Positions 80 through 45,546 of a stretch of DNA of 47,938 bases are shown one piece after another. Location of the stretch: the NCBI GenBank assembly GCA_964531015.1, contig CAZHCP010000002.1, positions 1 through 47,938 of the forward strand, in the 5' to 3' direction. Each line of letters begins with the position of its first letter. The first letter of the stretch is position 1. Origin of the DNA: an uncultured Muribaculaceae bacterium (GTDB lineage: Bacteria; Cyanobacteriota; Vampirovibrionia; Gastranaerophilales; Gastranaerophilaceae). The notes beneath the pieces were generated by a model, which made no database searches, was not told the origin of the DNA, and worked only from the letters and a program-made list of their open reading frames with translations. The position numbers and the translations under genes were made by a program.

Positions 80-337
80 TGCACTTCCGCCTTTCTATTT
101 ATTTTATAATCATATTTTGTATTATATCATTTTTCACTTTGTTTAACATACATTAAACAATCTACAATAATAATATTTCCCGATTTTGAAGGGTTTATAA
201 CAGAAAATCGAACTTTTCTTTACATTCTTAACATTTTTTATTAAGTTCTCTCCTGTCGAAGAGGACTTTGAAGAATTTTTCATAAAAATGCAAAAAATAA
301 TCAAAAAATTAAAAACATTATATATTTTCGGTCCTTT

Positions 338-928: not shown

Positions 929-1072
929 TGTAATCCCTTTTTTTTGAATATATTGTATTTTAAATTTCATTTCCTTTTTTTGCATTATCCTTCTTTATTA
1001 AGAACTTATGTTAATTATTAATTGAATAGTTTTTTTAATTGATATAAAATACAGTCGTTACGGTTAAATATA

Positions 1073-2089
1073 ATGAAAAAGAAAAATATTAAAATTCTGG
1101 ATTGTACTTTGCGTGACGGCGGTTCTCTTAATAACTGGCTGTTTGGCAAGGATTGTATTTTTCAAATTTTGCAAGCGTTAAATAATTCCCGTATTGATGT
1201 TGTTGAATCCGGATTTACGGATAATAACGTTATTTTTAACCCTGAGTCCGCTTTAAACCCTTGTATCGATTTTTTTGACGATTTAGCCGGCAATATTGTC
1301 GATAAAATGACTGATGTCGTTGCTATGATTGACCTTTCAAAATATAATTTCGAAAAATTAAACATATCTTCTTCAACTTCTTTAAACGGTATTCGTTTAA
1401 TGTTTAAAAAAAATTCCATTGCCCGTGCTTTGGAATTTTGCGAAATTTTACAAAATCTTAATTATAATGTCAGCCTTAACCCCGTTTCCGTTACGGGATA
1501 TTCAAAAAACGAACTCACGGCATTTTTAAAAGACGTTAATTGCGTTAATCCGCAGACCGTTTATATTGTTGATACATACGGGCTGTTGAACAAGAAAGAA
1601 ACTCTTGATTATTATGATTTGTTTAATAATTCGTTAAAAGAAAATATTACAATCGGTTATCACGCTCACAATAATATGCAGACGGCTTTTTCAAATTCCG
1701 TTGAGCTTGTTAATATTAATGATGAAAGAAATATTATCATTGATTCTTCTTTGTACGGAATGGGAAAACGTGCGGGAAATGTTCCGACCGAATTGATTGC
1801 ACAATATTTGAATGCTTCAAAAAACGGTAATTACAATATTGATTTTTTATTGCAGGCAATTGAAAAATATATTTTGCCGATATATGAAGTAAAACATTGG
1901 GGATATTCGCTTATTCACTATGTTGCGGCAAAAAATAAATGTCATTCCGATTATGTTTCTTATTTGTATAACGAAAAAAAACTCTCGTTCTCTGCCGTAA
2001 ATACGCTTTTAAGTAAAATGGAGGTTGCGGAAAAACTTTCTTTTAATAAAAATTATATTGATTTGTTATTGGAGGAATATTATGAATAA
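1073..2089 (+). CDS. HMGL-like aldolase / pyruvate carboxyltransferase family TIM-barrel protein
   Basis: N-terminal ILDCTLRDGG motif and HAHNN metal-ligand region, both typical of the HMGL-like family. 338 aa. Confidence 0.7.
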   Translation: MKKKNIKILDCTLRDGGSLNNWLFGKDCIFQILQALNNSRIDVVESGFTDNNVIFNPESALNPCIDFFDDLAGNIVDKMTDVVAMIDLSKYNFEKLNISSSTSLNGIRLMFKKNSIARALEFCEILQNLNYNVSLNPVSVTGYSKNELTAFLKDVNCVNPQTVYIVDTYGLLNKKETLDYYDLFNNSLKENITIGYHAHNNMQTAFSNSVELVNINDERNIIIDSSLYGMGKRAGNVPTELIAQYLNASKNGNYNIDFLLQAIEKYILPIYEVKHWGYSLIHYVAAKNKCHSDYVSYLYNEKKLSFSAVNTLLSKMEVAEKLSFNKNYIDLLLEEYYE

Positions 2090-2741
2090 TCAATCCGAAT
2101 ATATTTTAAAAAGAAATCGTTTAATAGCCGAAAAAACCGTAGACGCATTGAATAAACGCTTTTTTGACGCTTGTTACGTTGAAACAAAAGAACAGGCACT
2201 TGTGAAAGCTGTTGAGTTTGTCGATAAAAACAAAAGCGTTTCTTGGGGCGGGTCGGTTACTCTTGAAGAAATCGGATTGATTAAATATTTAAAAGAAAAT
2301 AATTATAATATTATTGACAGAAATGCCGCAAAAACCCGTGAAGAAAAACTGTTGCTTTCAAAACAGGCTTTAACCTGCGGTTCGTTTTTTATGAGTTCAA
2401 ACGCAATTTCAATGACCGGCGAACTCGTTAATATCGACGGTGTCGGCAACAGAGTTTCCGCTTTGATTTTCGGTCCTGACAACGTGATTGTTGTTGCGGG
2501 TGTTAATAAAATCATGCCTGATTTGGATTCTGCCTTAAAACGTGCAAGAGAGTATTCCGCTCCCGTTAATATTCAACGAATTTCCGCTTTATCGGAGCGA
2601 AAAACACCTTGTGCATTATCCGGCACTTGCCACGATTGTACATCTCCCGATTCGATTTGTTCAAATATCGTTATTACAAGATTGTGTTTGCAGCAAAAGC
2701 GAATTAAGGTAATTTTGGTTGGTGAAAATTTGGGATTTTAA
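2082..2741 (+). CDS. LUD-domain (DUF162, LutC/YkgG-like lactate-utilisation family) protein
   Basis: The ATG at 2082 follows GGAGG at 2071-2075 and overlaps the upstream stop. SWGGSVTLEEIGL and NAISMTGELVNIDGVGNRVSALIFGP are typical LUD motifs. The longer track ORF from 2025 is rejected. Confidence 0.75.
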   Translation: MNNQSEYILKRNRLIAEKTVDALNKRFFDACYVETKEQALVKAVEFVDKNKSVSWGGSVTLEEIGLIKYLKENNYNIIDRNAAKTREEKLLLSKQALTCGSFFMSSNAISMTGELVNIDGVGNRVSALIFGPDNVIVVAGVNKIMPDLDSALKRAREYSAPVNIQRISALSERKTPCALSGTCHDCTSPDSICSNIVITRLCLQQKRIKVILVGENLGF

Positions 2742-2840
2742 TTACTTTTTGTAAAAAATTCGAAAATTTATGATTTTTTTTATGAGGTTTGTAATATAAT
2801 TCTCTTGTGTTTATATATGTGTACATAGAGGGAGTATATT

Positions 2841-3680
2841 ATGAGAGTATCCGCATTATCAACAAATTATTTTCAAAATGTAAATTTTAATTCCGTAAAA
2901 CATTCAAAGCCGTCCGCTTTAAATAAAACGGAAGTGAATGTCGCACAAAAAAATTCACTTGATTTATTAAAAAATTATAATGTTATTAATGTAAATTTTA
3001 AAGGTGCAAAGTACGTTCCGAGTGAAGATTTTACGGAAATAAATGCCGAAAACAGGGATTTGGTTGCTCCTTTGTATAAAAAATATCAGGAAGGAATGAA
3101 CCAAAAAGTTGATGAAGATAAATTGGATAATTATTTATCAACGGTTTTAAATAACGGCGATAAAATTTTTGTTTTGAACAAAGGTGAAAAGCCCGCAGGA
3201 TTTATACATGTTTCGACTTCGTATTCAACAATTGACATGTGTCCGTTTACGACAATTCAAAGTCTTTTTGTTTCAAAAGAAAACAGGGGAGAGGGGTTGT
3301 CGAAAAAACTCGTAAAAGAAGTTGAAAAATGGACAATCGCAAACGATTATAAAGGTATTCACGTAAAAACACACGCAAATAACGCTTCTTCAACGGGGCT
3401 TTATAAAAAACTCGGTTTTAATGACGAAAGTAAAAAATACGGTGTATATTTCCTTCCGAATAAAAATGTATTGGATTATAAAAAAGGTTATGTAAATACA
3501 AAAAACAATGAAGTAAAACCGGATAAAACATACGAAGATAAAACTTATGAAGAAAAATTAAAAGATAAAAATTTCAATCGGTTTTTAGCTTATAAAATTC
3601 ATAAACCCGAACCGATACAAATTTATGAATTTATTAATGAGAATGATTTTCCGACTCTCATAGAGAACTTGCCGTATTAG
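2841..3680 (+). CDS. GNAT-family acetyltransferase domain protein with a ~55-aa N-terminal MxVS...NFKG leader
   Basis: RBS GAGGGAG. GNAT motif A region is FVSKENRGEGLSKKLVKEVEKW...LYKKLGF. The leader MRVSALSTNYFQNVNF...VINVNFKG ends at F53-K54-G55. Confidence 0.75.
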   Translation: MRVSALSTNYFQNVNFNSVKHSKPSALNKTEVNVAQKNSLDLLKNYNVINVNFKGAKYVPSEDFTEINAENRDLVAPLYKKYQEGMNQKVDEDKLDNYLSTVLNNGDKIFVLNKGEKPAGFIHVSTSYSTIDMCPFTTIQSLFVSKENRGEGLSKKLVKEVEKWTIANDYKGIHVKTHANNASSTGLYKKLGFNDESKKYGVYFLPNKNVLDYKKGYVNTKNNEVKPDKTYEDKTYEEKLKDKNFNRFLAYKIHKPEPIQIYEFINENDFPTLIENLPY

Positions 3681-3759
3681 AGATACGCACACGATTTAGC
3701 TGAATTGGCAAAAGATAACGCAAGCCATTGCACAAATTAAACATATAATAATACGGCGG

Positions 3760-3786
3760 GGCGGGTAATTTTTATCTCGACCCGTC
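3760..3786 (+). terminator. possible rho-independent terminator after the GNAT gene
   Basis: GGCGGGT ... ACCCGTC forms a 7-bp stem (one G-T pair) with a 13-nt loop, followed by TTATTCTC. Confidence 0.3.
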
Positions 3787-3988
3787 TTATTCTCGGAATA
3801 ATGGTTATAAGGTATGTCAAACCAAAGAATTTAAAACACAAAAAGTAATAAATTAATTATTAATAATTCGGTGCTAAGAAATGAAGGCGGGGCTGTTTTT
3901 TCTCTGCTTTTAAAGCAATTATTGTATGAATTTATTATTCGATATAAAATAAAGTAAAAATAATTTTTTTATTCAAAAGGAGAAGTTA

Positions 3989-4246
3989 ATGCAAGTTACG
4001 AGAGATACTTATTTTATACCGACGACACAAGTTAAGCAAAACGGTGAAAATTTATCGGGTAATGATTTGATAAATTTAGGATATATGGCGGGACGTTTCG
4101 GGGTAAATTTAAACAATAATCCGAATGAGCCTAACTTCCCCGTTTATACAAATGACGGAGTCTTTTTTAATATTAATTCCTGTACCTCCGAAAGTTTTAT
4201 GAATAATCTTAAAAATTCGGGCATTCACTTTACGTACTTTGCTTAA
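3989..4246 (+). CDS. small hypothetical protein (85 aa)
   Basis: Strong RBS AAAGGAGAAG precedes the ATG. No domain recognised. Confidence 0.55.
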   Translation: MQVTRDTYFIPTTQVKQNGENLSGNDLINLGYMAGRFGVNLNNNPNEPNFPVYTNDGVFFNINSCTSESFMNNLKNSGIHFTYFA

Positions 4247-5025
4247 TTTGTATTCTCGATGTCCGTTGAATTTGTTATTATGAGTTCTTTCATTGAATTA
4301 ACCGCATAGTGAGTTGTTTTTAACAGGTTTTCTTTGCATATTTGTCCGCTTGCAACGAGTATTATATTTTTTATTCCCGCATTTTTTGCAGAAATATAAT
4401 CCATCGGTGCATCGCCCGTCATAAGTGTTGTTTCGGGTGCGGAAGAAAGTTTTGACAGTGCAAGTTTTGTCGGTTCTCCGCTTTCTTTTGTGTAAGGAGA
4501 AGATTCTCTTCCTATTACGACATCAAATAAGTTTTCCCAATTAAAATATTTCAAAGTAATCATTGCGGATTCAACGGAATCGGACGTTACTATTCCTGTT
4601 TTTATGTTATGTGATTTAATTTCTTTTATGAAATTTATTGCGGACTCAATCGGTTTTGTATATTCGTTTATGTTTTTATAAAAATCAATATTTACTTCAT
4701 CAAACAATTCCGTTAATTTTTTCTCCGTCGTATTAACTCCGTACTTTAACAAATCATTTCTAAAAATTTCAATAATTTTTGAGCGTGAATATAAAGCGGT
4801 AATTCCGTTTTCTTCCATCCGTTTGTTGTTTACGTCGTAACCGAGCAAAAAACACAGTTCATTAAATAATCCGTTGTTCAACCCAAATTCGCTTATAATT
4901 CGTTCGACTCTGAGACAGGTCATTTTGCCCCAAAAATAATGCAGGTCAATAAATGTTCCGTCTTTATCAAACAATACGGTATCAATATTTTTTATTGTCC
5001 AATTATCCGTTGAAACGTTAATCAT
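4243..5025 (-). CDS. HAD-superfamily hydrolase (phosphatase-like)
   Basis: HAD motif I LFDKDGTFIDL, motif II GIVTSDS, motif IV GDAPMD. Confidence 0.8.
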   Translation of the reverse strand: MINVSTDNWTIKNIDTVLFDKDGTFIDLHYFWGKMTCLRVERIISEFGLNNGLFNELCFLLGYDVNNKRMEENGITALYSRSKIIEIFRNDLLKYGVNTTEKKLTELFDEVNIDFYKNINEYTKPIESAINFIKEIKSHNIKTGIVTSDSVESAMITLKYFNWENLFDVVIGRESSPYTKESGEPTKLALSKLSSAPETTLMTGDAPMDYISAKNAGIKNIILVASGQICKENLLKTTHYAVNSMKELIITNSTDIENTN

Positions 5026-5989
5026 TTTTCATGTTCCTTAAAGAAACATCAACAAGCGATTTTGCAACGGCAACCGCTTCTGATAACATTTTTTTATCTT
5101 CCGCTAAATTATCAATTAACAAATATTTCTTTATTATTTTTCTCGCATAAGAACCGACAGCCAAACAATTCGGGGATACCGAACATAATTTTGCAAGTTC
5201 CGTTGATTTTGTATTTGTTCCGCCCGACATCATAATATATGCCGGAATATTTGAATTTTGAAACATTTGAGCCGTCGCAACCGCCTGCAATGTTGTTGAA
5301 TATTCATCATCATTTCCGCTCATGGCAACTCCGTCTGCCTGAATAATCGTTGTATAAGGTTTTCTTTTTGAAACCAATCTCTCAACACGTTTCTTTAAAC
5401 GAATATCACCGAGTTGTGAACGGTCAAGCGATATACACAAAAAACCGTCATATAATTTGTTTAACAATTCCCATTTTTCATCAACATCTTTTTCATCCTC
5501 GGTTATTGCGTGAAATTCAATACAATCAATGCCTTTTGCTATAACAGGCGGTAAAACTTCCGAATAGTCTTTTAATTGAGTTTTCATAGTAATTGCACGG
5601 GCAGGACAAGTGTTTACGCATTTTGAACAGCCTATACATCTTTTGTTTATAATTTCGGCGGTTGAAGAAATATTAATTGCTTCGTTCGGACAAACCCGCC
5701 GGCATTTTCCGCAAGCGGAACAGGATTTTGTATCAATTTCCGCTTTTGTAATATGAGGGTCACCCGATAAACCGACGCTTACGCACAAATATCGGTTATT
5801 AGAAATGCCTGCACGTTTTAAACCCTTTTTCGCCGCTTCAACAATTTCTTCTTTTGCACACACATCAAAAAATTGACATCCGGCAAGCGAATAAACCGTA
5901 ACCAATTTTTCGACTTCTTCCGCATCTTCGTTTCCTGCTCCGCAAACGAGTTTAAAACAGTGTTTTTCTTCCAACAAATCTTTTAACAT
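5018..5989 (-). CDS. LdpA-like iron-sulfur protein (TIM-barrel-like N-terminus plus 2x[4Fe-4S] ferredoxin motifs)
   Basis: Two CxxCxxCxxxCP motifs (CSACGKCRRVCP, CIGCSKCVNTCP). The N-terminal FKLVCGAGNEDAEEVEKLVTVYSLAGCQFFDV resembles my recollection of cyanobacterial LdpA (KLICGAS...). The family call is from memory only. Confidence 0.5.
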   Translation of the reverse strand: MLKDLLEEKHCFKLVCGAGNEDAEEVEKLVTVYSLAGCQFFDVCAKEEIVEAAKKGLKRAGISNNRYLCVSVGLSGDPHITKAEIDTKSCSACGKCRRVCPNEAINISSTAEIINKRCIGCSKCVNTCPARAITMKTQLKDYSEVLPPVIAKGIDCIEFHAITEDEKDVDEKWELLNKLYDGFLCISLDRSQLGDIRLKKRVERLVSKRKPYTTIIQADGVAMSGNDDEYSTTLQAVATAQMFQNSNIPAYIMMSGGTNTKSTELAKLCSVSPNCLAVGSYARKIIKKYLLIDNLAEDKKMLSEAVAVAKSLVDVSLRNMKND

Positions 5990-8694: not shown

Positions 8695-9444
8695 TTAATT
8701 TTTAACGGAAACATTTTTTATTGCATTTTTATTAAAAACAATAAAATAATTTTCACGAGAGTTAGTGGTTGCACCGTCAATGCCTAATTCGTCGGATATT
8801 TTTTGCATGCAATATTCGTTAACAAATTGTGACATTACTTCATGTTCCGCCATACCGTATTGAGAAAATATCATAGGTTTATTCAATGCTTTTGAAAGTT
8901 CGCAAACCATATCTCTTTTCAATTCGTTATATTTATCAATGTTTGCACCGTGTGCGGTGTTGCCTTCATATTCGGATTTTAAAGTAACTCCGGAATAAAT
9001 ATCCAATGCACCTTCGCTAAATCCGAAATAAATACCGGGACCGTATTCCGTTTTTGATATTTTTGAAGTATCAAATCCGTTTTGTAAAATATTTTCGATA
9101 TTCCCTTCCGCTGTTTTATGCAGTAAGTTATCAATGGTTTTATATTCCGTTTTATCGCCAAATAAAGATTTTAGAGAATCAACAACATTTATTTTGTTTC
9201 CGTTTTCAAAGTCGGTGAAACTCATTTTATCCAAAACCGTATAAAGTTCTTCTTTTTTATTGCTCAGTGTATTTGAAAAATCTTTTTTATATTGTTCGAT
9301 TTCCTCAGGATTGCAGGATGATAAAAACGGATTAAAATTCCCGAAGGAAGTTGATTGCGGCTGATTTTTTGTTTTTTCGTTTGTTTTCTGTTGAATATTT
9401 CTTGCGGGAGTTGAGTAAATCCCGTTTATTCCGTTTATTTGCAT
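8695..9444 (-). CDS. leader-family protein with C-terminal PARP-like ADP-ribosyltransferase domain
   Basis: RBS AAAGGAA. Leader is MQINGINGIYSTP...STSFGN. LLHKTAEGNIENILQNGFD...GPGIYFGFSEGALDIYSG follows the H..GF...G.G.YF...S..Y pattern of the H-Y-E ART clade. Confidence 0.55.
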   Translation of the reverse strand: MQINGINGIYSTPARNIQQKTNEKTKNQPQSTSFGNFNPFLSSCNPEEIEQYKKDFSNTLSNKKEELYTVLDKMSFTDFENGNKINVVDSLKSLFGDKTEYKTIDNLLHKTAEGNIENILQNGFDTSKISKTEYGPGIYFGFSEGALDIYSGVTLKSEYEGNTAHGANIDKYNELKRDMVCELSKALNKPMIFSQYGMAEHEVMSQFVNEYCMQKISDELGIDGATTNSRENYFIVFNKNAIKNVSVKN

Positions 9445-9580
9445 AATATTTCCTTTATTTGTTACCCGTTTATATTTATAAAAACAAAGTAATCAAAAAA
9501 ATTGACCGATTAAAAATTACCCCGCAAAAATTATATTTATGAACCTTTAGAATAACAGAAGTAAAATCTAAAGAAAAAAT

Positions 9581-12500
9581 ATGAAAATATCTCCTAATGT
9601 AAATCAGATAAATTTTATATTCCCTGCAACCGTCAAAAGCGAAGAAAGACAAACAAAACCAAATACAAACGAAAATGGTTTTTCTTTTTCTTTAACGGCA
9701 AGTAATGCAATAAAAAGCTATAATACGGCATTTATAACCTTTTGCGGAGATGAGAAGCATTATGAAAATCGTAAAAAATTTAATGATTTAATTAATCAAT
9801 ATAGTAACCTTGTAAATCAAAATTTTGAGATGTCGGATTTTGATTGTAAAAAAGAAAATCTTTCTTATAAATCGGGAATTTTGCAAAAGATTGTTTCGAA
9901 CAAACTGTTATATGAAAATGATGGTATAAGAAATAATATTCAAAAAATTTTAAATAACATAAACTCCGATGAAGAATATGAATCAAAATCGGAATTGCTG
10001 GATAAATATGCCGGTGATGAAAACTGGAATAATAATGAAACAGTACGCAATATCATTGGAGAAATAACGAGCGGTGTTTTCAAAGAAAACGGTCAAAAAG
10101 GTACAATTGCGATTATAAATAAATATTTATCCGATAAAAATTGGCAAAATTGTAAAAAAATAAAGGAAAAACTTGCATTTGTTGCCTTTAATTGCAATAC
10201 GAAAGAAGAAGCAAACGCCAAAATTAAAGTTGCGGATAAAATATTATCTAATAAAATTTTGTCGGAAAATGAAGGGATAAAAAATAACATAATTATAATA
10301 TTACAATATTGTAATTCCGCTCAAAACGCAGACGTAAAAACTAAAATTGCAGATATATATTCTTTAAACCCTAAATTATACGAAAATGAAAATCTGAGTA
10401 GATTAATATGGTCAATTCTTCATACGGTATGCACAAAATCAGGATATAATATAAAATCGAAATTATTTGATAAATATTTATTTGATGAGAAATGGAATAA
10501 AAATAATTTAATCAATAATGTAATCGGTAATATGATTAACAAAATTACGAATGAAGGGGAAGAAACCGCAATTGAAATAATTTGCGATAAATATTTATCA
10601 AATAATGAATTATCGGGAAATAAGTATATAAACGAAAATATTGAAAATACATTAAAAAATGCAATGTTGTCGAAAAAGAAAGCGGAAATAATTGTAAAAT
10701 TAATGGAAAGATATTTTTGTAACGGAAATATCGATAATTATGCGAGAGAGGATATTGATAATATATTCCACTTAATGTCTTTTGTTTCGGAGGATGTGGA
10801 AAATGACAAGCGACTAAGATTATTTGATAAATATGTTGAAAATGAAATCCTTTTTAAGAATGAGAATTTGCGAAGCAATATGTATGATTTAATGTTGCGA
10901 ACATCGAAAGATGAAGCGTATGATGAAATAGAAAATTTTTTAAATAACTATATAAAATCTTCAAAACTTAATAAAAGTGAACTTGTAAAAAATACATTAA
11001 GTCATATTTTAAAAAATATATCAAATAAATCACAGCGTTATTATAATGAAGAAATTATTAATTTTGCACAAAATTATGAAATATCAAAAGAAACATTCAA
11101 AAAACTTATACAATGCTATGGGAAAATAAATACGGAGAGCATAGAAAAATTGATTAGAAATACGGGAAAAGAGAAATTTGAAGAAATCACCGACAGAATA
11201 CCGGATTTAATAACGACAAGCCGGTTAGCTTCTTTGTATAAAGTCGAAAGTATAAATGAAATTTCTCTTGCGGAAAGAAAAAATATTCTGAGAGAAATGG
11301 TAAGAAATAATAACGGAATGTTTGAATTAAGTAACAAACAAAAACAAAATTTCCCGTTAATTCCAAACAGCAGAGAAGAATATTGTTCGTTATTGCCTCA
11401 AATAGCAAGCTCAATCGGCATTGAAACAAAGGAGTTAACGGCCGATGAAGTTAGTGAGTTTGAAAAAAGAATGACAAATATGTCAAAAATATTGGAGGGA
11501 TTGCCCGATAAAAAATTTAATAAATTAAAAATTGACACAATGTATAAAAAAGATGAATTTATACACGATGTTATTAATTCATTAAAAGATTTATCCGTTA
11601 ATGAACGTCAACAGATATTCGATTTTTACGGTTTTGAAATAAGACGGCAGAAAGAACAATTATCACTCTTCGGTTATCCTCAGGATGTAAATTATGAACA
11701 GAGATTAATGCAAATACAAAACCAAAATGTAAAAAACGGAATTGAAAATGTAAGAAAATTCATAATAAAATTTACATCGGAAAATAAAGTAAAATCAAAC
11801 AATCCTTCACTTGAAAAAGAATTAAATGCAATGTTAAAACTTGCACCGGAATTGTACGGAAGCATAAATAAAAAACAACATCATACGCATGATTTTGACA
11901 TAATGAAACATTCGCTGAAAGTAATGCAAAAAATCGTACAAAATCCCAATTATAAGAAATTGAACGATTCGGATAAAAAAGTTATGTTGCTTGCCGCAAT
12001 GTACCATGATATTTCAAAAGCGGAAGGATGTGTTGATAATACGCATGCACAAGAAAGTTCGTTTGATTCTTTTTATTTGACAAAAAAATATAATCTGACA
12101 AAAGAAGAACAAAATAAGTTATATACGTTAATAAAAAATCACGAATGGTATAATTATACAAACACGGTGAATTCGCAAAATAAGGAGATTTTAAATAAAC
12201 GTTTGCAATCCGTAGCTTTTGAATTTAGAAACGGTGATATGTTCAAAATGGCACAAATATTTACGATTGCCGATATGAAAGCTGTTAAAAAGAATGATGA
12301 TTTCTATTTGTGTAAGAATAAGAACTTTGATAATTTTGCAGAAAGAATAACCGCATATACGGAAATATTAAAAAAAACGGAACCTGTTTTGCCGGTGACA
12401 AAAATACCGAAAGCAAGCGAACTTGATAAATATATTACAATCGTAAATGATGACGGTTCGACAAACATAAAGGGATTATATAAAACAGCAAGCGGAATAA

Positions 12501-37704: not shown

Positions 37705-37895
37705 TAAATATTTGCCGATTTTACAATATCTTTATAATTTCTTTATAAAAGCAATTTCTTTTTTGTATTCGTTCAAATAATCACGATTACTGTGCTCTTG
37801 GCGGATGGTTCGTCGTTATTAATTTGATAAACCCGTTTTCACAATGCCGGTTTTTGACGTAGCTGTATTGCATAATAAAAATAAAAGGGTGAAAC

Positions 37896-38240
37896 ATGAA
37901 ATATTTAATACGAGCAAACAAAGTTGTTTTTAGCGGTAATATGCAAATGATTATGAAATATATTTCTGATTTTTACAAGTCGGAAACAAAATACAATACG
38001 GGCAAACAGGGAGAATGGACGGATTTGGGAAAATTCAAAGCATTTATCGAGTCAATCGGATATGCAATAAAAGATAAAATCCCCGCAAATTGCCGTTGCG
38101 AAGGAACTGCCGTGACAAATGCGGAGTTTAAGAAAATTTGGGGCGAATGTCATTTCAACATAAAAGCCGTAGCGGAAAGATTGCACACGGATGAAAGAAC
38201 GGTCGCTCAAATTGTTAGAAAAATGAAATTGAGGAAATAA
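37896..38240 (+). CDS. small protein (114 aa) with C-terminal helix-turn-helix; first gene of the RtcB-RT operon
   Basis: RBS AAGGGTGA. C-terminal NIKAVAERLHTDERTVAQIVRKM is HTH-like. Its stop lies 2 nt before the rtcB ATG. Confidence 0.65.
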   Translation: MKYLIRANKVVFSGNMQMIMKYISDFYKSETKYNTGKQGEWTDLGKFKAFIESIGYAIKDKIPANCRCEGTAVTNAEFKKIWGECHFNIKAVAERLHTDERTVAQIVRKMKLRK

Positions 38241-38242
38241 TT

Positions 38243-39364
38243 ATGTACGAAATTCAAGGCAAATATACAACGGCAAAAATTTTTACCGAAATTGAAGACA
38301 CGGACGTAACCGAGCAAACTTTAGCAATTTGCAATCATCCGATTTTTAAAGATTGTAAAATTCGAATAATGCCGGATTGCCACAGGGGAAAAGGTTGCAC
38401 AATAGGTTTTACTTCAACAATGCCTCAAAACGGGGAGATTATTCCGAACATAATCGGAGTTGACCAATCCTGCGGAATGCTGACCGTAAAACTTAAAAAA
38501 TCAAAAACCATAAACGATTTTGCAAAACTTGATAAAATTATAAGAGAAAATGTACCTTTCGGCGAAAACGGCAGAAAAGAAATAAGCGGTTTTGTTCCCG
38601 AAGAATCGATTGAAAAAATCAAAAAGATTTCAATTGATATTTTATGCGAAAAACCAAACAGAGATTTAAAGAAAATCGGCTCTTTAGGCGGGGGAAACCA
38701 TTTTATATCAATTGAAAAAGGTTCAACCGGAACATATTTAATTATACACAGCGGTTCAAGAAATTTTGGCAAAAAACTTGCCGTTCATTTTCAGAAATCG
38801 GCAATTGAAACGAATTGTTACGGGGAAGGCGAACTTAAAAATTTATCTTATTTAACGGGAGAAAATGCTCAAAATTATCTTGAATGTGCAAAAGTGTGCA
38901 GAGAATACGCTCATTTTAACAGGCTTGTAATTGCACAAGAAATTCTAAACGCAATGGGTTGGAAGTCTGATGATGAATTTGAAACAATCCATAATTACAT
39001 TGGGCAGGACGGGATTATTCGAAAAGGTGCAATTTCCTGTTATGCCGGCGAAAAAGTCTTAATTCCGCTAAATATGGCGGACGGTTCTTTAATTTGCACG
39101 GGCAAAGGAAATCCCGATTGGAATAATTCTGCCCCGCACGGTGCCGGAAGGGCTTTATCAAGAACGCAGGCAAAAGACAAACTGTCAATGAAAGATTATA
39201 AAGAGAAAATGAAAAGCATTTTTTCAAGCTGTGTTTCAATTGCAACTCTTGATGAAGCTCCAATGGCATATAAAAACAGTGATGAAATTATAAAGTCAAT
39301 TGAGCCGACTGCCGAAATTATAGACCACCTGAAACCGCTGTATAACTTTAAGGCTGAGGAATAA
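38243..39364 (+). CDS. rtcB: RtcB-family RNA 3'-phosphate/2',3'-cyclic-phosphate ligase (short 373-aa form, catalytic residues intact)
   Basis: MPDCHRGKGCTIGF, IGVDQSCGM, GGGNHFISIE, HSGSRNFG, HNYI, RKGA and the guanylylated-His motif PHGAGR (His codon at 39137-39139). Confidence 0.9.
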   Translation: MYEIQGKYTTAKIFTEIEDTDVTEQTLAICNHPIFKDCKIRIMPDCHRGKGCTIGFTSTMPQNGEIIPNIIGVDQSCGMLTVKLKKSKTINDFAKLDKIIRENVPFGENGRKEISGFVPEESIEKIKKISIDILCEKPNRDLKKIGSLGGGNHFISIEKGSTGTYLIIHSGSRNFGKKLAVHFQKSAIETNCYGEGELKNLSYLTGENAQNYLECAKVCREYAHFNRLVIAQEILNAMGWKSDDEFETIHNYIGQDGIIRKGAISCYAGEKVLIPLNMADGSLICTGKGNPDWNNSAPHGAGRALSRTQAKDKLSMKDYKEKMKSIFSSCVSIATLDEAPMAYKNSDEIIKSIEPTAEIIDHLKPLYNFKAEE

Positions 39365-39368
39365 CATC

Positions 39369-40229
39369 ATGAAAAAGAAAAATATTTTCTACGTGACAAA
39401 TGATTTATACTACACAATTTGTGAAATTAAAAACAGAATAATACACATACCTTGCGAAGAATTAAAATTTAAACAAAAATACATTTTAAATGCAATAAAA
39501 TGGGTTTACCCGTATAAAACGGATATTTATAATGTTGCGAAAATACATTCAGGTAAAAAATGGATTTTAAAACTGGATATAAAAGATTTCTACAATTCCG
39601 TTCCGATGTGTAAAATTCAAAAAGTTATCGACAGTGTATGCACAAAAACAAATCAACCCGAAAACACGCTGCGGTTTTTATTATTGGTAACGGTCAACGG
39701 AAAACTTCCGACAGGCGTTTCAACTTCGGCACATATTGCAAATGCCTGTTTTAAGTCTGTTGATAGAGAAATACAAGCTCTTTGCGTTTGTAATAATGTT
39801 GATTATTCAAGATATGTTGATGATTTAATATTTTCAAGTTACTGCAAAGAAAATTTAAAATTTGTAGAAAATAAAATCCGAAAAATTTTAGGATTTGAAG
39901 GATATCAATTAAATAATAAAAAAACAAAATATATTTCCGTAAATAAACAGCAAAATATTTTAGGTCTTGTTGTGAACGATTATAAAGTAAGATTACCCAA
40001 AACTTTAAAAAAAGATATTCGTGCAATGCTGCATAATTATGCGGTTTTTAATTCTTCCGTTACTTGCACCGATACAAGATTTTTAGCATGGGATAAGAAA
40101 AAAGAAGAACGCTTGGCAGGCTACATTGCATACATAAAACATATCGATAAAGCGTTTTATTATAACTTACAAACTTATTGCGATAAATTAGAAAAAAAAT
40201 ATTTTATCTCGTTTCAATTTCTTAAATAA
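39369..40229 (+). CDS. retron-type reverse transcriptase (286 aa, RT domain only)
   Basis: LKFKQKYILNAIK, NVAKIHSGKKWILKLDIKDFYNSV (NAxxH-like plus RT motif 1/2), LPTGVSTSAHIANACF (motif 4), YSRYVDDLIFSS (the catalytic YVDD at 39813-39824) and ILGLVVN (retron VTG-like region). Confidence 0.85.
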   Translation: MKKKNIFYVTNDLYYTICEIKNRIIHIPCEELKFKQKYILNAIKWVYPYKTDIYNVAKIHSGKKWILKLDIKDFYNSVPMCKIQKVIDSVCTKTNQPENTLRFLLLVTVNGKLPTGVSTSAHIANACFKSVDREIQALCVCNNVDYSRYVDDLIFSSYCKENLKFVENKIRKILGFEGYQLNNKKTKYISVNKQQNILGLVVNDYKVRLPKTLKKDIRAMLHNYAVFNSSVTCTDTRFLAWDKKKEERLAGYIAYIKHIDKAFYYNLQTYCDKLEKKYFISFQFLK

Positions 40230-40275
40230 TAAAAGTGACGAAAATTAAAATTCCCCTCGAAATTCCGATTATAAA

Positions 40276-40314
40276 ATCAAGAAACCGACTTTATGATATA
40301 AAGTCGGTCTTGAT
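40276..40314. terminator. long hairpin (16 bp with a 2-nt bulge) between convergent RT and DnaB-like genes; probable bidirectional terminator or structured RNA
   Basis: ATCAAGA(AA)CCGACTTTA, loop TGATA, TAAAGTCGGTCTTGAT. On the minus strand it is followed directly by TTTTAT. Confidence 0.55.
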
Positions 40315-40438
40315 GAGGATTTTCTTCCGAACGAAGTGAGGAAGGATTCTCCTTGTTTTTGTTTCTCGGCTAAGCGAATCACTTGCCCGTATTTTTATTA
40401 TAATTTACAACCGTGCCGTTTTATGACATATCCGTTTT

Positions 40439-41281
40439 CTAAAATTCATAATTTCTAATCGGCTCAAAAAACTTTGTAATTTGTGCTCTGAATAACAAAG
40501 TGCAAGTTCCGAGCGGCCCGAATTTATTTTTTGCAACCGTTATTTCCGCTTTTCCTCTATTAATAAAATAATCATCATCGTTATATTGATTATAATATTC
40601 ATCACGGTAAATAAACATTACGACATCCGAAACATTTTCAATTGCCCCTGATTCTCTCAAATCAGAAAGCATGGGACGTTTGTCGGTTCTTGATTCTAAT
40701 GCACGTGATAACTGCGAAGTTATAAAAACAGTGCAAGAATTTTCTTTTGCGATTTCTTTCAATTTTTTCATAATATGTTCAAAACCTTCACCCCGTTGCA
40801 CTTTTGAAGGAATATCAATCAGTTGCAAATAATCAATAAAAACAAATTCGGGTTTTTCGACCTCAACTTTTTCCTTAATTTTATCTGCTGTCAGGCATGG
40901 TAAATCAGAAATTTTGACATTGTAATTTTCAAGTTCTTTAATTGCGTTACTAATCTTTTCCCGCTCTTTGCCGTTTATTGTACCGCAATTAACATGCAGT
41001 GTATCAATTTCCGCAAATTGAACAATTAACTTTTTTACAAGTTGTTGTATGCTCATATCCAAAGAAAAGAACAAACATTTTTTATTATTTTTAAGCAAAT
41101 GTAACATAATGGTTGTCATAAAAGATGTTTTACCCATTGCCGGTCTTGCCCCAATGGTTATAAGACTTGATTTCTCGTTGTCTTTTAATAACATATTCAA
41201 ATCATTAAACCCGATATCCCACGCATTTTTTTGTTCGGTTAAATTTTTTTCTATTTCTCTAAAAATTTCTTTATCTATCAT
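40439..41281 (-). CDS. DnaB C-terminal (RecA-like) domain-only ATPase; lacks the DnaB N-terminal domain
   Basis: Walker A GARPAMGKTSF, FVFIDYLQLI and SQLSRALESRTDKRPMLSDLRESGAIENVSDVVMFIYRDEYY. It is only 280 aa. Confidence 0.85.
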   Translation of the reverse strand: MIDKEIFREIEKNLTEQKNAWDIGFNDLNMLLKDNEKSSLITIGARPAMGKTSFMTTIMLHLLKNNKKCLFFSLDMSIQQLVKKLIVQFAEIDTLHVNCGTINGKEREKISNAIKELENYNVKISDLPCLTADKIKEKVEVEKPEFVFIDYLQLIDIPSKVQRGEGFEHIMKKLKEIAKENSCTVFITSQLSRALESRTDKRPMLSDLRESGAIENVSDVVMFIYRDEYYNQYNDDDYFINRGKAEITVAKNKFGPLGTCTLLFRAQITKFFEPIRNYEF

Positions 41282-41343
41282 AAAGTTTTCTCCTTTATTC
41301 TCATTGTTTCATACAAGTACGTCAAATTAAGACGTGTTATTTA

Positions 41344-41412: not shown

Positions 41413-42384
41413 ATGTCAAGACTAAACAAAGCGGAAGAAATTATTGAACTTGCAATGATGTTTCAAAACAGTTATTGCGGTTTGTGTATTGATGATATTC
41501 AAAAAGAGTTTGAATGTTCACGCAGGTCGGCAGAACGTATGAAATCGCTTTTGTTTGATATGTTCCCCGATAAAGTTGAGGAAGTTCCGACAACCGATAA
41601 GAAAAAACGCTGGCGATTTACAAAAGGCACTGTGAATGCACTGATTTCTTTTACGGCGGATGATTTTGCCAATCTTGAATTTTTGAAAGGTTTATCAAAT
41701 GATGAAAATCGAAAAAAAGAAATTGATGAACTGATTGCAAAAGTTAAAGCATTAACTCCTCAAAAGAATTTACAATCACTTGATACCGATGTTTCGGCAA
41801 TTATGGAATGCGAAGGCTTTGCCGTAAGACAATATTCGGGTGTAAAAGTTGAACCGTCGGTTTTGGAAAAACTCCGCAACGCTATGCTATCATTTAAAAA
41901 AATCCGATTTGATTACCCGACTGACAAGGGTAATCGCTCAATTACGCTTAATCCTTACGGAATACTAATTTCGGATAAATACTATTTGGTCGGATTTAAT
42001 GAATACGTGAATGATTTGCGACTTTATAAAATTGATAAAATTTCAGGTCTTGAAATTTTAGAAGAATATTTTGAAAAAGATGAAGATTTTTCGCTGACGC
42101 AATATTGCCAAAATTCTTTCGGAATTTACAGAGAAGAACCGTTAAAAATTACTCTCGACTTTGATTGTTCGGTTGCCGATGATGTTTTAAATTACCATTT
42201 CCACCCGACACAAAAAATGAAACAACTTGAAAACGGAAATGTTCAAGTAAAATTTACGGCAGGCGGAACCGAGGCAATCTGTCGGGAACTGTTTAAATGG
42301 GGCAAAAAAGTAAAAATCAAAAAACCTGTTGAACTGAAAAACCTTTATAAACAATATCTTTTTGATGTGTTGAATAATTACTGA
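41413..42384 (+). CDS. WYL-domain transcriptional regulator (HTH - WYL - WCX architecture)
   Basis: RBS AAAGGAG. N-terminal HTH (IDDIQKEFECSRRSAERMKSLL). The WYL-type core is YGILISDKYYLVGFNEYVNDLRLYKIDKISGLEIL, with a C-terminal extension. Confidence 0.8.
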   Translation: MSRLNKAEEIIELAMMFQNSYCGLCIDDIQKEFECSRRSAERMKSLLFDMFPDKVEEVPTTDKKKRWRFTKGTVNALISFTADDFANLEFLKGLSNDENRKKEIDELIAKVKALTPQKNLQSLDTDVSAIMECEGFAVRQYSGVKVEPSVLEKLRNAMLSFKKIRFDYPTDKGNRSITLNPYGILISDKYYLVGFNEYVNDLRLYKIDKISGLEILEEYFEKDEDFSLTQYCQNSFGIYREEPLKITLDFDCSVADDVLNYHFHPTQKMKQLENGNVQVKFTAGGTEAICRELFKWGKKVKIKKPVELKNLYKQYLFDVLNNY

Positions 42385-42401: not shown

Positions 42402-43556
42402 TTAGTCGTTGTTTTGATTATTTTTCGGAACTTGAACAATTATTTTGCCTTTTGATATATCAGAGATAAGTTTTGTTGCATTTTCGACATAATCTTTATA
42501 ACGAGGATCGTCAATTTGTTTTGAAGAAATAAGTTCGTCGACTTTTGCAAAATATGCGGAAAGATTTTTAATTCGTTCCGTTTTATTTTCGTGTATCCAT
42601 TGCATAAGCGGCTTATTTGCTTTTTGTCCGTTGCATGAAGTGTGCATTGCCATATAGTTTGAAATATCATCATGGTTTAATTCTATATCCCTTGCAAGAA
42701 TATGGTCGGTATTCGGAACCGAAAATTCAAGCATTCTTCTTGCAATGTCTTTTGATTTCCAATCCTGACCGTTTTTATCCTTGCCCGAATATTTAACAAT
42801 CCAAGCAGAGTTCATATCCGAAGATGTCGGGAAACTTTTTACCAGCTCCAAAACCTTATTGTATTTATCCTGATTTGAAATATGAACTCTGCTTATTTTG
42901 TCTATCAGGACTTTCCTTCGGAACGGAGATTCCGCATTATTCTTTTTAATTATTTTTTTAAACTCAACAACTTTTGATAACAATGCCCGACTTTCTTCTT
43001 CGGGAAGTTTTTTTGCAATATATTCTATTTCTTTAATTTTTTTCAACTGTACATGTTCCAACAGAGGTAATTTTGTATTACGAAGTTGACATAATAAAGT
43101 TTGGATATCTTTAATGCCAAGGTCTTTTGAAAGTGCGGTCAATTCTTCAAAAACGCTGTATTCGACAGGTCGCATATAATCTTTGTATTCGTCCAAAAGC
43201 GAAAGATAATTTTCATTTTCAGTTTCGTCGAGTTTATTCAAAAATTCATTGTATTTATCGGCAGGTAATAATTTTTTTCCGCATGCCGGGCATGGAACAT
43301 TATCAAATGCATTAACTTTAAATTTTGAAGGAACTTCAATTAATTCCGGGTTTGAACTTGTATAAACCCTGTCATCGCCGGAAGGGATTAAATATGCCTC
43401 TATATCATTAAAAGTTATTTTTTTTATATTTCTGTTTTCTGTTTGCTCGTCGGGTGTTTGATTGCACTTGAAATTTTCTTGTGACTCGTGTTTAAACACG
43501 GTTTTATTATATTGCTTTGCATATATACCCGATAAATTTATTGTAGAAATTTTCAT
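42402..43556 (-). CDS. leader-family protein with CPACG zinc-ribbon and C-terminal HNH nuclease motif
   Basis: I prefer the ATG at 43556 (MKISTINLSGIY...), although the RBS is weak. The HNH signature is NTDHILARDIELNHDDISNYMAMHTSCNGQKANKP. The track ORF starts at 43571. Confidence 0.7.
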   Translation of the reverse strand: MKISTINLSGIYAKQYNKTVFKHESQENFKCNQTPDEQTENRNIKKITFNDIEAYLIPSGDDRVYTSSNPELIEVPSKFKVNAFDNVPCPACGKKLLPADKYNEFLNKLDETENENYLSLLDEYKDYMRPVEYSVFEELTALSKDLGIKDIQTLLCQLRNTKLPLLEHVQLKKIKEIEYIAKKLPEEESRALLSKVVEFKKIIKKNNAESPFRRKVLIDKISRVHISNQDKYNKVLELVKSFPTSSDMNSAWIVKYSGKDKNGQDWKSKDIARRMLEFSVPNTDHILARDIELNHDDISNYMAMHTSCNGQKANKPLMQWIHENKTERIKNLSAYFAKVDELISSKQIDDPRYKDYVENATKLISDISKGKIIVQVPKNNQNND

Positions 43557-43656
43557 AAAATACCCGACCACTTAATACATATAATAATAAAATATAAACA
43601 AAAATAAAATTGCCTGTTTTTTGGTTACGAATTGTAAAGTTGGATTTTTTGAGGGT

Positions 43657-43857: not shown

Positions 43858-45546
43858 GTGAAAATATCACAACGCAGTTACACGGGTATAACGAAACAAA
43901 ACATAAAACAACAAAATCTTAAACAACAAAACGGCACAAAACAAACATTAAATAAAAATAACGGTGTTGCAAATAAATCCAATTTTAAAGGTGGCATATC
44001 TGATGGTGCTTTTAATCTGTTGGACGGCATGTTCCGTGTGTTGGAAATAAATCCGATGGTTCAAGTTTCGGTTGTTGATACGGTTGCAACAAACATCCCG
44101 AGAACCGTTGTTGATTTAAAAACGGGTTTGGCTGCCGCTTTGGAAACATGCAGAAGAGAATTTTCCGGTTTGTTTGTTAACTGTTTAATGCCCTCAGGGA
44201 TTGTTTTTGGGGTTGCTTCACTGTTACCTAAAGCGGAAAATTTAAAAGGTACAAAGATTTTTAATTCTTGGGCAACGGAAGATTCCATTGAAAAATTAAA
44301 AACCGTATATAATAAAGCACAAGAATCTTCGGCAACGGATAAGACGAAAGAATATGTCGAAAAGGCAATCGGCTCGTTAAAAGGACTTAACGGCAAAAAT
44401 TGGGAAGCATACGCAAATCATGCCCAAAATCCCGTATATAAAGATGCCGTTAATGATATAGTTCAAGCAATGTCGACAACAGTAAAAAAAGACAGAAAAT
44501 CTTTCATAAACAGTGCAAGAGAAAAATTGGCAGGCTTAACAAAAGCCGAAACAACTCTTAAATTCGGTGATAAACCGCAAGCAAATTTAAGTAATACATT
44601 GCGGGATATTGTTGATATGGGTGCGAGATTTAATGACGTTAAAGCAAAAACGGCAAACTCCGCCGATGTTCCGAAGGCAATAAATAATTACTGCAAAAAC
44701 TTAACGAAATTTGTTAAACAAAAAAGCTTTATCGGCATGGGTATTGTAATTGCAATTGCCATCAGCGTACAAAAAATAAACAGAGCAATAACAAGAAAAC
44801 AGTTTAATGCAGAAGGTGCTCCGATTTATAAAGATTTTGGCAAAAAAGACACCACGCAAAAAATGGACGAAAAACAAAAGAAAAAATTTAAAGCAAAAAA
44901 AATTATTTCCGCCGCAAGCATGTTCGGAATTGCCGCATTGTCAATGATGAAAAAGCCTTCTTCGGCAATGTTCCAGTTCTCGGGCAAGTTCCCGACCGTT
45001 GACCAATGCCGTTGGATTGCTTCTTCAACAATCGCAAGCAGAATGTGGGGGGCGGAAGACGAAAACGAATTAAGAGAAACAACCGTTCGTGATATAGCTT
45101 CGTTTGCCGGCTTGTATGTTTTGGGCGACTACGTCAACAAGGGTGTTGCTTCCGCAATTGAAGCCGTTACAAATTCAAAATTGTACCAAAAAACCGGTAA
45201 AAAACCTGTTGAACTGTTAAACAGAAACATTCAAAATTCCGACAAAGCACAAAAAGGCATTTCAAAAGTTGCAAAAAATTTCTTTGATTGGATGAAAAAT
45301 ACGGAATTGAAATCAGCACTTGAAGTAAAAGACGTAAGAACAAGAAATTTGAGAAATTTATGCAAATTGGCGGATATCGGATTTTCAATAGTGATGTTGG
45401 GTATTTTATTGCCGAAATATAACAGAAGCGTAACCGAAAAGAAAGTTGCGGTTGCAAAAGCGGCAGAAGAACAACGAAACAAAAATATGTTGGAACTTTC
45501 CAAAAAGGAAATGCCGTCTATATTTAATGCAATTATGACAAAATAA
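43858..45546 (+). CDS. leader-family polytopic membrane protein
   Basis: GTG start after AAGGAATAAGG. Leader MKISQRSYTGITKQ...KSNFKGG ends at F43-K44-G45. At least five hydrophobic segments are present (for example FIGMGIVIAIAISV and IISAASMFGIAALSMM). Confidence 0.7.
   Translation: MKISQRSYTGITKQNIKQQNLKQQNGTKQTLNKNNGVANKSNFKGGISDGAFNLLDGMFRVLEINPMVQVSVVDTVATNIPRTVVDLKTGLAAALETCRREFSGLFVNCLMPSGIVFGVASLLPKAENLKGTKIFNSWATEDSIEKLKTVYNKAQESSATDKTKEYVEKAIGSLKGLNGKNWEAYANHAQNPVYKDAVNDIVQAMSTTVKKDRKSFINSAREKLAGLTKAETTLKFGDKPQANLSNTLRDIVDMGARFNDVKAKTANSADVPKAINNYCKNLTKFVKQKSFIGMGIVIAIAISVQKINRAITRKQFNAEGAPIYKDFGKKDTTQKMDEKQKKKFKAKKIISAASMFGIAALSMMKKPSSAMFQFSGKFPTVDQCRWIASSTIASRMWGAEDENELRETTVRDIASFAGLYVLGDYVNKGVASAIEAVTNSKLYQKTGKKPVELLNRNIQNSDKAQKGISKVAKNFFDWMKNTELKSALEVKDVRTRNLRNLCKLADIGFSIVMLGILLPKYNRSVTEKKVAVAKAAEEQRNKNMLELSKKEMPSIFNAIMTK

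Follow-up and report, generated by a model that had tools for sequence, protein, structure and literature searches.

A retron-clade reverse transcriptase beside an RtcB RNA ligase: a probable mosaic of two modules in a family of WYL-associated islands

Introduction

In a stretch of 47,938 nucleotides (nt) of contig CAZHCP010000002.1 (GenBank assembly GCA_964531015.1), to which we refer as the window, three genes follow one another head-to-tail on the plus strand, encoding a protein of 114 amino acids (aa), named ORF1 here, an RNA ligase of the RtcB family and a small reverse transcriptase (RT). The question raised by this locus is whether these genes form a dedicated RT system, with RtcB as the partner or effector of the RT, as a first-pass annotation of the sequence had proposed, or owe their proximity to something else. 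Had RtcB proved to be the effector of a retron, it would have represented a new class, but the comparative data argue against this, and we consider it probable that the locus is a mosaic of two autonomous modules, which belong to one family of WYL-regulated islands and were joined by local rearrangement. One of them would be an RNA end-joining unit for 3'-phosphate and 5'-hydroxyl (5'-OH) ends, made of ORF1, a protein with a helix-turn-helix (HTH)-like part, and a compact RtcB; the other would comprise the RT, of the retron clade, a structured RNA gene of ~125 nt on its 3' side, and a hexameric-type ATPase made of a DnaB_C domain only. The RNA gene just 3' of the RT had been overlooked in the first-pass annotation.

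Results

The features of the window that make up the two proposed modules are the following.

37896..38240, plus strand: ORF1, 114 aa, constant partner of this RtcB subfamily, with a C-terminal three-helix, HTH-like unit
38243..39364, plus strand: RtcB-family 3'-phosphate/5'-OH RNA ligase, compact form of 373 aa (Pfam RtcB, phrog_1075)
39369..40229, plus strand: retron-clade RT, 286 aa, YVDD active site (Pfam, PADLOC, NCBIfam and PDB matches)
40271..40395, assigned to the minus strand: RT-linked structured RNA element with three hairpins, P1 at 40368-40387, P2 at 40324-40344 and P3/terminator at 40276-40314 (covariance model, covariation)
40439..41281, minus strand: DnaB_C-only RecA-fold ATPase, 280 aa, without the N-terminal primase-binding domain (Pfam DnaB_C 7.9e-71; phrog_243/19)

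The coordinates bear out the earlier description of three co-oriented open reading frames (ORFs), with a gap of 2 nt between ORF1 and rtcB and of 4 nt between rtcB and the RT gene. At the latter junction a GAGGA ribosome-binding site lies within the end of rtcB, no promoter or terminator was called, and the RT of the window is likely, judging from the sequence, to be co-transcribed with ORF1 and RtcB. When 13 locus types of the RT family were examined, the DnaB_C-only ATPase was found to be the immediate neighbor of the RT in all of them, while an RtcB gene lay within 7 kb of the RT in five types and next to it in only two, the window and locus L252, which belong to a single shallow clade. The adjacency of RtcB and RT, whose conservation the first-pass annotation had proposed to examine, was thus seen in that clade only, and its view of RtcB as the partner or effector of the RT was not supported. 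In ten of the 13 types DnaB_C is found 5' of the RT on the same strand, overlapping it by ~14 nt or 10 nt away, and in the other three (the window, L252 and L161/L162) it is convergent with the RT and downstream of it. The two genes diverge in parallel (51-62% for the RT, 44-56% for DnaB_C).

Individual loci add to this picture, and the two closest relatives by RtcB, L252 and L253, differ from each other. Locus L252 (RtcB 89% identical) has the gene order of the window, with ORF1, RtcB, a gap of 4 nt, the RT and a convergent DnaB_C, and is collinear with window positions 37835-41328 at 84% DNA identity, with a different upstream gene and a PDDEXK_4 nuclease inserted before the WYL regulator gene. 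Locus L253, where RtcB is 87% identical, has no RT, and in L163 and L175 the ORF1-RtcB and RT modules are convergent, with three genes between them. L161 and L162, a sister lineage, occupy the chromosomal site of the window (adhE upstream) at 88-92% DNA identity, and have suffered a deletion of 1.3 kb, corresponding to window ~37990-39283, of which a 19-codon stub of ORF1 and a decayed 3' end of rtcB are the remains; the RT, DnaB_C, WYL and downstream genes and the RNA element are intact, and the ratio of nonsynonymous to synonymous divergence (dN/dS) of the RT is 0.16, as expected under purifying selection. Between the window and L252, all five genes (ORF1, RtcB, RT, DnaB_C and WYL) are under purifying selection, with a dN/dS of 0.04 for ORF1. 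The synonymous divergence (dS) of the RT (0.43) and DnaB_C (0.47) is about half that of ORF1 (1.48), RtcB (0.93) and WYL (1.10), and this difference, in estimates that are noisy, suggests that the modules have had separate histories. On these comparisons a dedicated RtcB-RT system is not supported, and RtcB would not be a core partner of the RT.

The ORF1-RtcB pair recurs on its own. In about 25 metagenome loci (L081-L105) with an RtcB 69-85% identical to that of the window, ORF1 lies directly upstream in nearly all and a WYL gene is nearby, but in none of them does an RT adjoin RtcB; the only RT among them, in L086, is frameshifted and lies on the opposite strand at a distance of 2 kb, beyond a DnaB_C gene. 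ORF1 is directly 5' of RtcB in 27 of 31 RtcB loci. Where there is no RT, the pair is often followed by a DnaC-like loader ATPase (phrog_50), small proteins, and TPR or WG-repeat proteins. By its gene neighborhoods, ORF1-RtcB is an independent two-gene module, RT-less in most related loci.

The catalytic signatures of RtcB reported in the first-pass annotation (CHRGKG, GGGNHF, HSGSRNFG and PHGAGR) were all found intact. The protein matches Pfam PF01139 at E 2.8e-55 (188.7 bits against a cut-off of 27), an alignment to Pyrococcus horikoshii RtcB (PH1602) places D74/C77, N152/H153, H169, H250 and H299 at the positions of its metal ligands and guanylylated His, and the catalytic residues are invariant in 17 relatives. 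Judged by fold, metal ligands and nucleophilic His, the window protein belongs to the RtcB RNA ligase family. It scores below every NCBIfam equivalog cut-off (PRK09588, 114 vs 407; release_rtcB, 86.9 vs 271.8), and its best profile is the phage family phrog_1075, annotated as 'tRNA splicing ligase' (399 bits, 7e-119, full length). Homologues are present in 678 phage genomes, all at 45% identity or less, and the compact form has many metagenomic relatives. As for the usual companions of RtcB, said earlier to be absent from the window, no RtcA, RtcR, PrfH or archease domain was found by Pfam and NCBIfam among the seven genes around RtcB, the rest of the window not having been scanned, so that the earlier statement stands for those seven genes. 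ORF1 belongs to a narrow family (115 clusters) without a Pfam domain, and gave no family match in Pfam, PADLOC, NCBIfam or PHROG. Of its earlier description as a small HTH protein, what stands is a confidently predicted C-terminal three-helix unit (residues 71-114, AlphaFold2 confidence, pLDDT, 83-91); the top fold matches, to DNA-binding domains of the Fis/NtrC type, are non-significant.

Three observations on this module can be recorded separately. In L085 (596-4371) and L086 (3086-6877), a divergent DnaB_C-only paralogue (269 aa, 34% identical to that of the window) is located directly upstream of ORF1-RtcB, on the same strand and with the same operator, and DnaB_C-like ATPases therefore also accompany RtcB without an RT. 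The RT of L086 (7036-7916) is split into two overlapping ORFs, which is a frameshift or an assembly error in a contig of 2.5x coverage, and the adjacent RNA element is intact at 124.8 bits. In L094-L097 and L105 (for example L094:1279-3763) there is a compact ORF1-RtcB-WYL operon, whose WYL protein is 33-37% identical to that of the window and whose palindrome is the variant GTACGTC-N7-GACGTAC; such an operon is analogous to RtcR-RtcBA, with WYL replacing the CARF domain.

Among 80 distant RtcB loci listed, a single one, L019, has a neighboring RT. In this Faecousia sp. metagenome-assembled genome (JAZRKL010000094.1; L019:5082-9414), a DUF2828/DUF7788 (Ro/TROVE-like) gene, a 411-aa RtcB and an Ec107-like 'orphan' retron RT (PADLOC, 439 bits) stand in a row, with ~140-270 nt between RtcB and the RT core. 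We rejected it as a relative of the arrangement in the window, as its RT is an unrelated Ec107-like retron RT beside a Ro-like/RtcB operon, in other words an independent juxtaposition.

The RT can be placed firmly in the retron clade by profile and structure matches. In addition to Pfam RVT_1 (E 1.5e-17), it matches the PADLOC retron models RT_II-A (2.6e-48, 163 bits) and RT_X (8e-45, 151 bits), a check that the first-pass annotation had called for, with 114 bits for type XI models; NCBIfam retron_St85 is matched at 3.9e-47, with 160.9 bits and hence below the cut-off of 235. The top 14 PDB matches are all retron RTs, among them Ec86 at 1e-19, aligned over residues 22-278 with the C-terminal region included, and the scores against Drt and group II models are far weaker. 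Of the retron-like hallmarks listed earlier, YVDD is intact, while the strict NAxxH and VTG motifs are replaced, not in the window alone (VAKIH, ILG) but across the RT family, whose consensus is xAKIH, with the N not conserved, and N(I/V)LG. The family, of ~285 aa, counts 245 clusters. That this is a minimal RT, neither a group II intron nor a diversity-generating retroelement, was confirmed: we found no maturase or endonuclease domain on the RT (group II TIGR04416, 41.7 against a cut-off of 300), no group II intron RNA in Rfam at the gathering threshold or at E<=10, no template/variable-like repeats longer than 36 nt at >=72% identity within 36.5-45.6 kb, and no Avd-like gene among the neighbor genes scanned with Pfam.

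The second invariant companion of the RT is an RNA element. About 125 nt abutting the RT stop codon are conserved in every RT locus, even at ~50% RT protein identity, and fold into three hairpins, of which P2 has a conserved internal loop and apical loop and P3 is a long terminator-like stem. All 29 RT loci were matched by a covariance model of this element (R1), with 46-133 bits and each time directly against the 3' end of the RT; neither 66 viral stretches nor the RT-less RtcB loci that were searched gave a score exceeding noise. In a non-redundant alignment of 12 sequences, 97.5% of the cells were paired and 8 of 20 pairs had compensatory double changes (29 cells); the covariation score was 0.396, compared to 0.189±0.020 in shuffles, none of which reached it in 500, and to at most 0.11 in slid controls. 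No Rfam family matched the element at the gathering threshold or at E<=10.

The element is probably a small RNA of ~120 nt with its own promoter, which is convergent with the RT and ends in a bidirectional terminator common to both. Three features favor the minus strand. Eleven cells that are U.G on it would turn into C.A mismatches on the plus strand, and about one cell behaves the opposite way; an intrinsic terminator was called on the minus strand at 40310-40282; and the flank has the promoter-operator design of the protein operons in the minus-strand reading only. By folding energy the two strands could not be told apart. Due to the DnaB_C or RtcB gene that abuts the RT on its other side, there is no room for such an RNA upstream. 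An 18-nt direct repeat (TTTTATTATAA[C/T]TTACAA, 94% identical) at window 40155-40172 and 40393-40410 brackets the 3' end of the RT and the RNA element; one copy lies in RT coding sequence, the other is the -10 region of the small RNA, and the repeat may be a chance product of AT-rich sequence.

The regulatory features of the window are listed here.

37843..37882, plus strand: ORF1-RtcB(-RT) promoter, TTGACG-17-AAAAAT at 37854-37882, with operator-like half-sites AATGCC-N7-GACGTAG overlapping the -35/-10 pair (promoter scan)
40396..40431, minus strand: predicted promoter-operator for the small RNA, a degenerate copy in this genome, with TATGTC / GNCA half-sites and an ATAAT-AAAAAT block (design and spacing as in the ORF1 and DnaB_C promoters)
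41316..41338, no strand: palindromic operator GTACGTC-N7-GACGTGT, common to the divergent DnaB_C and WYL promoters (flagged as a palindrome in the promoter scan)
41413..42384, plus strand: HTH-WYL-WCX transcription regulator (Pfam WYL 3.8e-10, WCX 2.7e-08)

A recurring design, in which a TATGNC half-site is followed after 6-7 nt by TGACATAG and, after ~9 nt more, by an ATAAT-AAAAAT block, was found upstream of ORF1-RtcB in all related loci, of DnaB_C(-RT) and, in minus sense, of the small RNA. Its sites in the window are at 37843-37861 (ORF1 promoter), ~40411-40431 (small-RNA promoter, degenerate) and 41316-41338. A relaxed pattern, built of 6-mers that contained an N and were allowed one mismatch, showed no enrichment (145 vs 140), and for this reason we used a strict 7+7 palindrome, CTATGTC-N6-8-GACATAG with at most one mismatch per half. 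In the non-redundant island loci, 292 kb in all, we counted it 18 times, against 1.33±1.16 times in shuffles (maximum 5), and in 1.01 Mb of control loci 4 times; most of the island occurrences are just upstream of the ORF1 and DnaB_C operons.

The WYL regulator, which Pfam confirms as a neighbor of the RT along with the DnaB_C-only ATPase, as described earlier, is within a few genes of the RT in every locus with enough flank. It is the best-conserved gene of the islands, 71-83% identical in RtcB-only and RT-only ones, and, as the only regulator common to them all, it is the leading candidate to bind the operator. Beside WYL lies a slot for a variable defense nuclease, and the defense-island-like setting proposed for the window, with its WYL regulator, was borne out. 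In the window the slot is occupied by the following gene.

42402..43571, minus strand: 389-aa protein in the nuclease slot beside WYL, the content of which varies, with a weak HNH-like motif (PHROG HNH 1e-3; Pfam HNH at E 0.0087, which is below cut-off)

Its earlier naming as an HNH nuclease comes down to these two matches. Elsewhere the slot holds PDDEXK_4 (PADLOC PDC-S26, 270 bits), a PvuRts1I-like mREase_II (183 bits), or GIY-YIG or MBL-fold proteins. RT-only islands (L167, L170, L173, L180, L182 and L184) are flanked by GmrSD, DarT, HipA, PDC-S26 and mREase_II, which fits a defense-island setting.

The island family comes mainly from human-gut, other gut and bioreactor metagenomes. On the viral contigs of IMG/VR there was no relative of the RT and no close RtcB (best 42%). 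We also rejected 61 exact 15-mer matches of the RNA element on viral contigs as chance, no true element being recognized there by the covariance model, and, in spite of the phage-like genes, the idea that the island is a recognizable virus, as it has no close relatives on those contigs. We regard the islands as chromosomal or mobile, with phage-like genes, and not as a virus.

Discussion

The arrangement of the window is most readily explained if, in the clade that it forms with L252, a rearrangement brought ORF1-RtcB with its promoter into the place that DnaB_C usually occupies upstream of the RT, leaving DnaB_C beyond the RNA gene; RtcB and the RT would then be 4 nt apart because ORF1-RtcB took that place. 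Such a swap would have been tolerated because ORF1-RtcB, DnaB_C(-RT), the small RNA and WYL carry the same palindromic operator-promoter, and with equivalent promoters the RT would stay in the same regulon, most plausibly under WYL control. The RT might bind the small RNA as template, scaffold or both, and a complex of RT, RNA and possibly complementary DNA (cDNA) might control the DnaB_C ATPase or be sensed by it, by analogy with tripartite retron defense systems. WYL would derepress the regulon upon sensing nucleic-acid ligands, and RtcB would repair tRNA or rRNA cleaved in conflicts, as a co-regulated accessory and not as a core part of the RT system.

We acknowledge that several points weigh against such an account. 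Every functional step of the mechanism is one that we infer from the analysis, and the whole comparison rests on ~30 informative loci; in a profile search of genome contigs with the RtcB alignment, the matches listed included only relatives at 49% identity or less. The order ORF1-RtcB-RT has persisted under purifying selection across ~16% nucleotide divergence, and the presence of RtcB within 7 kb of the RT in five of the 13 types would be compatible with a facultative functional link. The binding of WYL to the predicted operator is deduced from co-occurrence. The strand assigned to the RNA rests on wobble counts and promoter geometry, and one lineage, L180, has wobble pairs that favor the plus strand. 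The RNA is not upstream of the RT, unlike in the canonical retron layout, and no a1/a2 terminal inverted repeats were seen in it by sequence inspection; the only complementarity that might have served for a1/a2-type pairing is A/U-rich and lies within the promoter and the U-tract, and was rejected. Because of this layout and of the missing strict NAxxH and VTG motifs, the RT may not make multicopy single-stranded DNA.

If ORF1, RtcB and the RT were after all a dedicated three-gene system, RtcB could be its effector or guard, or could join the RT product to RNA. The spacing of 2 and 4 nt with its likely co-transcription speaks for such a system, as does the fact that L252, 84% identical in DNA, preserves the order while purifying selection acts on all genes, and our literature search, in agreement with what the first-pass annotation had supposed, found no known retron type that uses RtcB and no paper joining the two. 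We regard it as very improbable nonetheless, and hold that the comparisons above have largely disproved it: RtcB and an RT of this family adjoin in one shallow clade only, no RT is adjacent in some 25 loci with a close RtcB, the modules of L163 and L175 stand apart and convergent, L161/L162 have lost ORF1-rtcB and kept an intact RT together with DnaB_C, WYL and the RNA, and the invariant partners of the RT are DnaB_C and the RNA element. A looser coupling, in which RtcB is an optional accessory of the islands under the same regulator, and either reseals tRNA or rRNA cut by a ribonuclease of the island or of a phage, as a reset, or processes or ligates the small RNA or the RT product, would agree with the operator-promoter shared by ORF1-RtcB, DnaB_C-RT and the small RNA, with the three different arrangements in which RtcB is found near the RT, and with the existence of ORF1-RtcB-WYL operons that resemble RtcR-RtcBA. 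We still hold it to be unlikely, as the modules are often apart, so that any cooperation must be dispensable, as no ribonuclease effector is evident in the islands, where the variable slot holds DNA nucleases, and as co-regulation may just reflect a common island regulator.

Alternatively, the RT and DnaB_C might be replication or mobility machinery of a mobile element and not a defense system, with the RT priming or copying an element-encoded RNA alongside helicase, loader and primase, and with the 3' element acting as origin, terminator or cis-antisense regulator of the RT mRNA. Several islands do carry a DnaC-like loader (phrog_50), a Prim-Pol, integrase fragments, a serine recombinase, a ParB-methylase or a large terminase, and a small RNA convergent with the RT over a common terminator hairpin is a layout typical of antisense control. 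Against this, the RT-only islands named above have no other replication genes and are flanked by defense genes, DnaB_C is without the N-terminal domain needed for primase coupling, the RT is firmly of the retron clade, the covariation of P1 and P2 around conserved loops goes beyond what an antisense RNA or a terminator would need, and no copy of the RT or RNA element was found on viral contigs; all in all, this explanation seems to us quite improbable. At the more ambitious end, the locus might be a wired damage-and-repair immune circuit, with an RT that has left the msr-msd layout and has a convergent small RNA of ~120 nt, a DnaB-like ring ATPase as sensor or effector, and a WYL regulon that switches on RtcB for repair or for RNA/cDNA processing, a proposal that we would call unlikely. 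The mosaic of two modules under one regulator is the account that we prefer, and it is the one to be compared with known systems.

Like retrons (Ec86/Eco1 of type II-A, St85), the RT module has a small stand-alone RT of the retron clade, a linked structured non-coding RNA and a conserved accessory gene, in a defense-island setting. It differs from them in that retron RNA lies upstream and on the same transcript, whereas the RNA of the window lies 3' of the RT and is probably convergent from its own promoter, in that no a1/a2 repeats were found, and in the xAKIH and ILG variants of the two RT motifs. The accessory classes of retron types I-XIII include ATPase with HNH or TOPRIM, Ndt, PRTase, 2TM, cold-shock, HTH, DUF3800, HEPN, protease, TIR, SWIM and others (Mestre et al. 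2020, PMC7736814); a DnaB_C-only ATPase is outside these described effector classes, and the terms DnaB, helicase, RecA, WYL, RtcB and ligase are not in that classification (PMC7736814).

The association of DnaB_C with retron RTs has already been reported computationally, in a May 2026 preprint (bioRxiv 10.64898/2026.05.14.725207) that describes, as 'TXI_noncan_h', protease-less type XI-like retron RTs with DnaB_C neighbors at offset +1 or -1, of unknown function, in gut-associated Bacillota and Bacteroidota, with a non-coding RNA 22-104 bp upstream of the RT and no WYL within ±2 genes. The family of the window shares with it the stand-alone retron-type RT that recurrently adjoins a DnaB_C protein, but differs, as far as a comparison by description allows, in a DnaB_C gene that in most cases runs into the start of the RT, in an RNA on the downstream side, and in a WYL gene within a few genes wherever the locus has enough flank; moreover, the RT of the window scores higher on the type II-A and X models than on those of type XI (163 and 151 vs 114 bits). 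The convergent 3' RNA gene, the association with WYL and nucleases, and the shared operator appear to be undescribed in the literature that we found.

As to RtcB, the likeness to Rtc repair systems (RtcR-RtcA-RtcB; RtcB2-PrfH) extends to a complete metal-binding and His-guanylylation site and to a ligand-sensing regulator nearby, which is a WYL protein in the window and the CARF-domain RtcR in E. coli. The likeness to phage-encoded RtcB tRNA-repair ligases is in the best profile, phrog_1075, and in the 678 phage records with homologues. Unlike in Rtc systems, the constant partner of RtcB here is a novel HTH-like protein of 114 aa, and a DnaC-like ATPase often comes after RtcB. WYL-domain regulators are known from defense islands (BrxR/CapW type) and as the PafBC/DriD regulators that sense single-stranded DNA. 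The HTH-WYL-WCX protein of the window resembles these regulators in architecture, in its position beside interchangeable defense nucleases, and in palindromic operators on its own and neighboring promoters, and differs from them in an apparent regulon to which an RT, a small RNA and also an RNA ligase belong.

If these results are taken together, the RT, the DnaB_C ATPase and the convergent structured RNA 3' of the RT would be a coherent, uncharacterized retron-like family. Pipelines that detect retrons look for the RNA on the upstream side, and for that reason would probably score an RT of this kind wrongly, as an 'orphan'. The ring ATPase would be an untested type of retron effector or sensor, and in the shared operator one would have a case, open to testing, of a WYL protein that coordinates nucleases and an RNA ligase with an RT and a small RNA, which may also explain how modules are shuffled within one regulon. 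The compact pair of RT and RNA could also be of interest for retron-based genome editing.

Other observations in the islands

The palindromic operator recurs in L167 and L170 (about 9280-11450), in front of a small, unrelated operon beside the RT module. This operon encodes proteins of 119 and 100 aa followed by HTH_3 and HipA, and the putative WYL regulon may hence extend to toxin-antitoxin genes. In L087, L088, L091 and L102 (about 200-5500), a serine recombinase, a ParB_N-DNA methylase and a large terminase (Terminase_6N/6C) are encoded immediately 5' of ORF1-RtcB, which suggests that some islands are phage- or satellite-derived. Next to WYL, the 389-aa HNH-like protein of the window (42402-43571) is conserved with the island in L161, with a dN/dS of 0.10; so is, with a dN/dS of 0.14, the 562-aa protein encoded at 43858-45546, which has no match in Pfam, NCBIfam or PADLOC.

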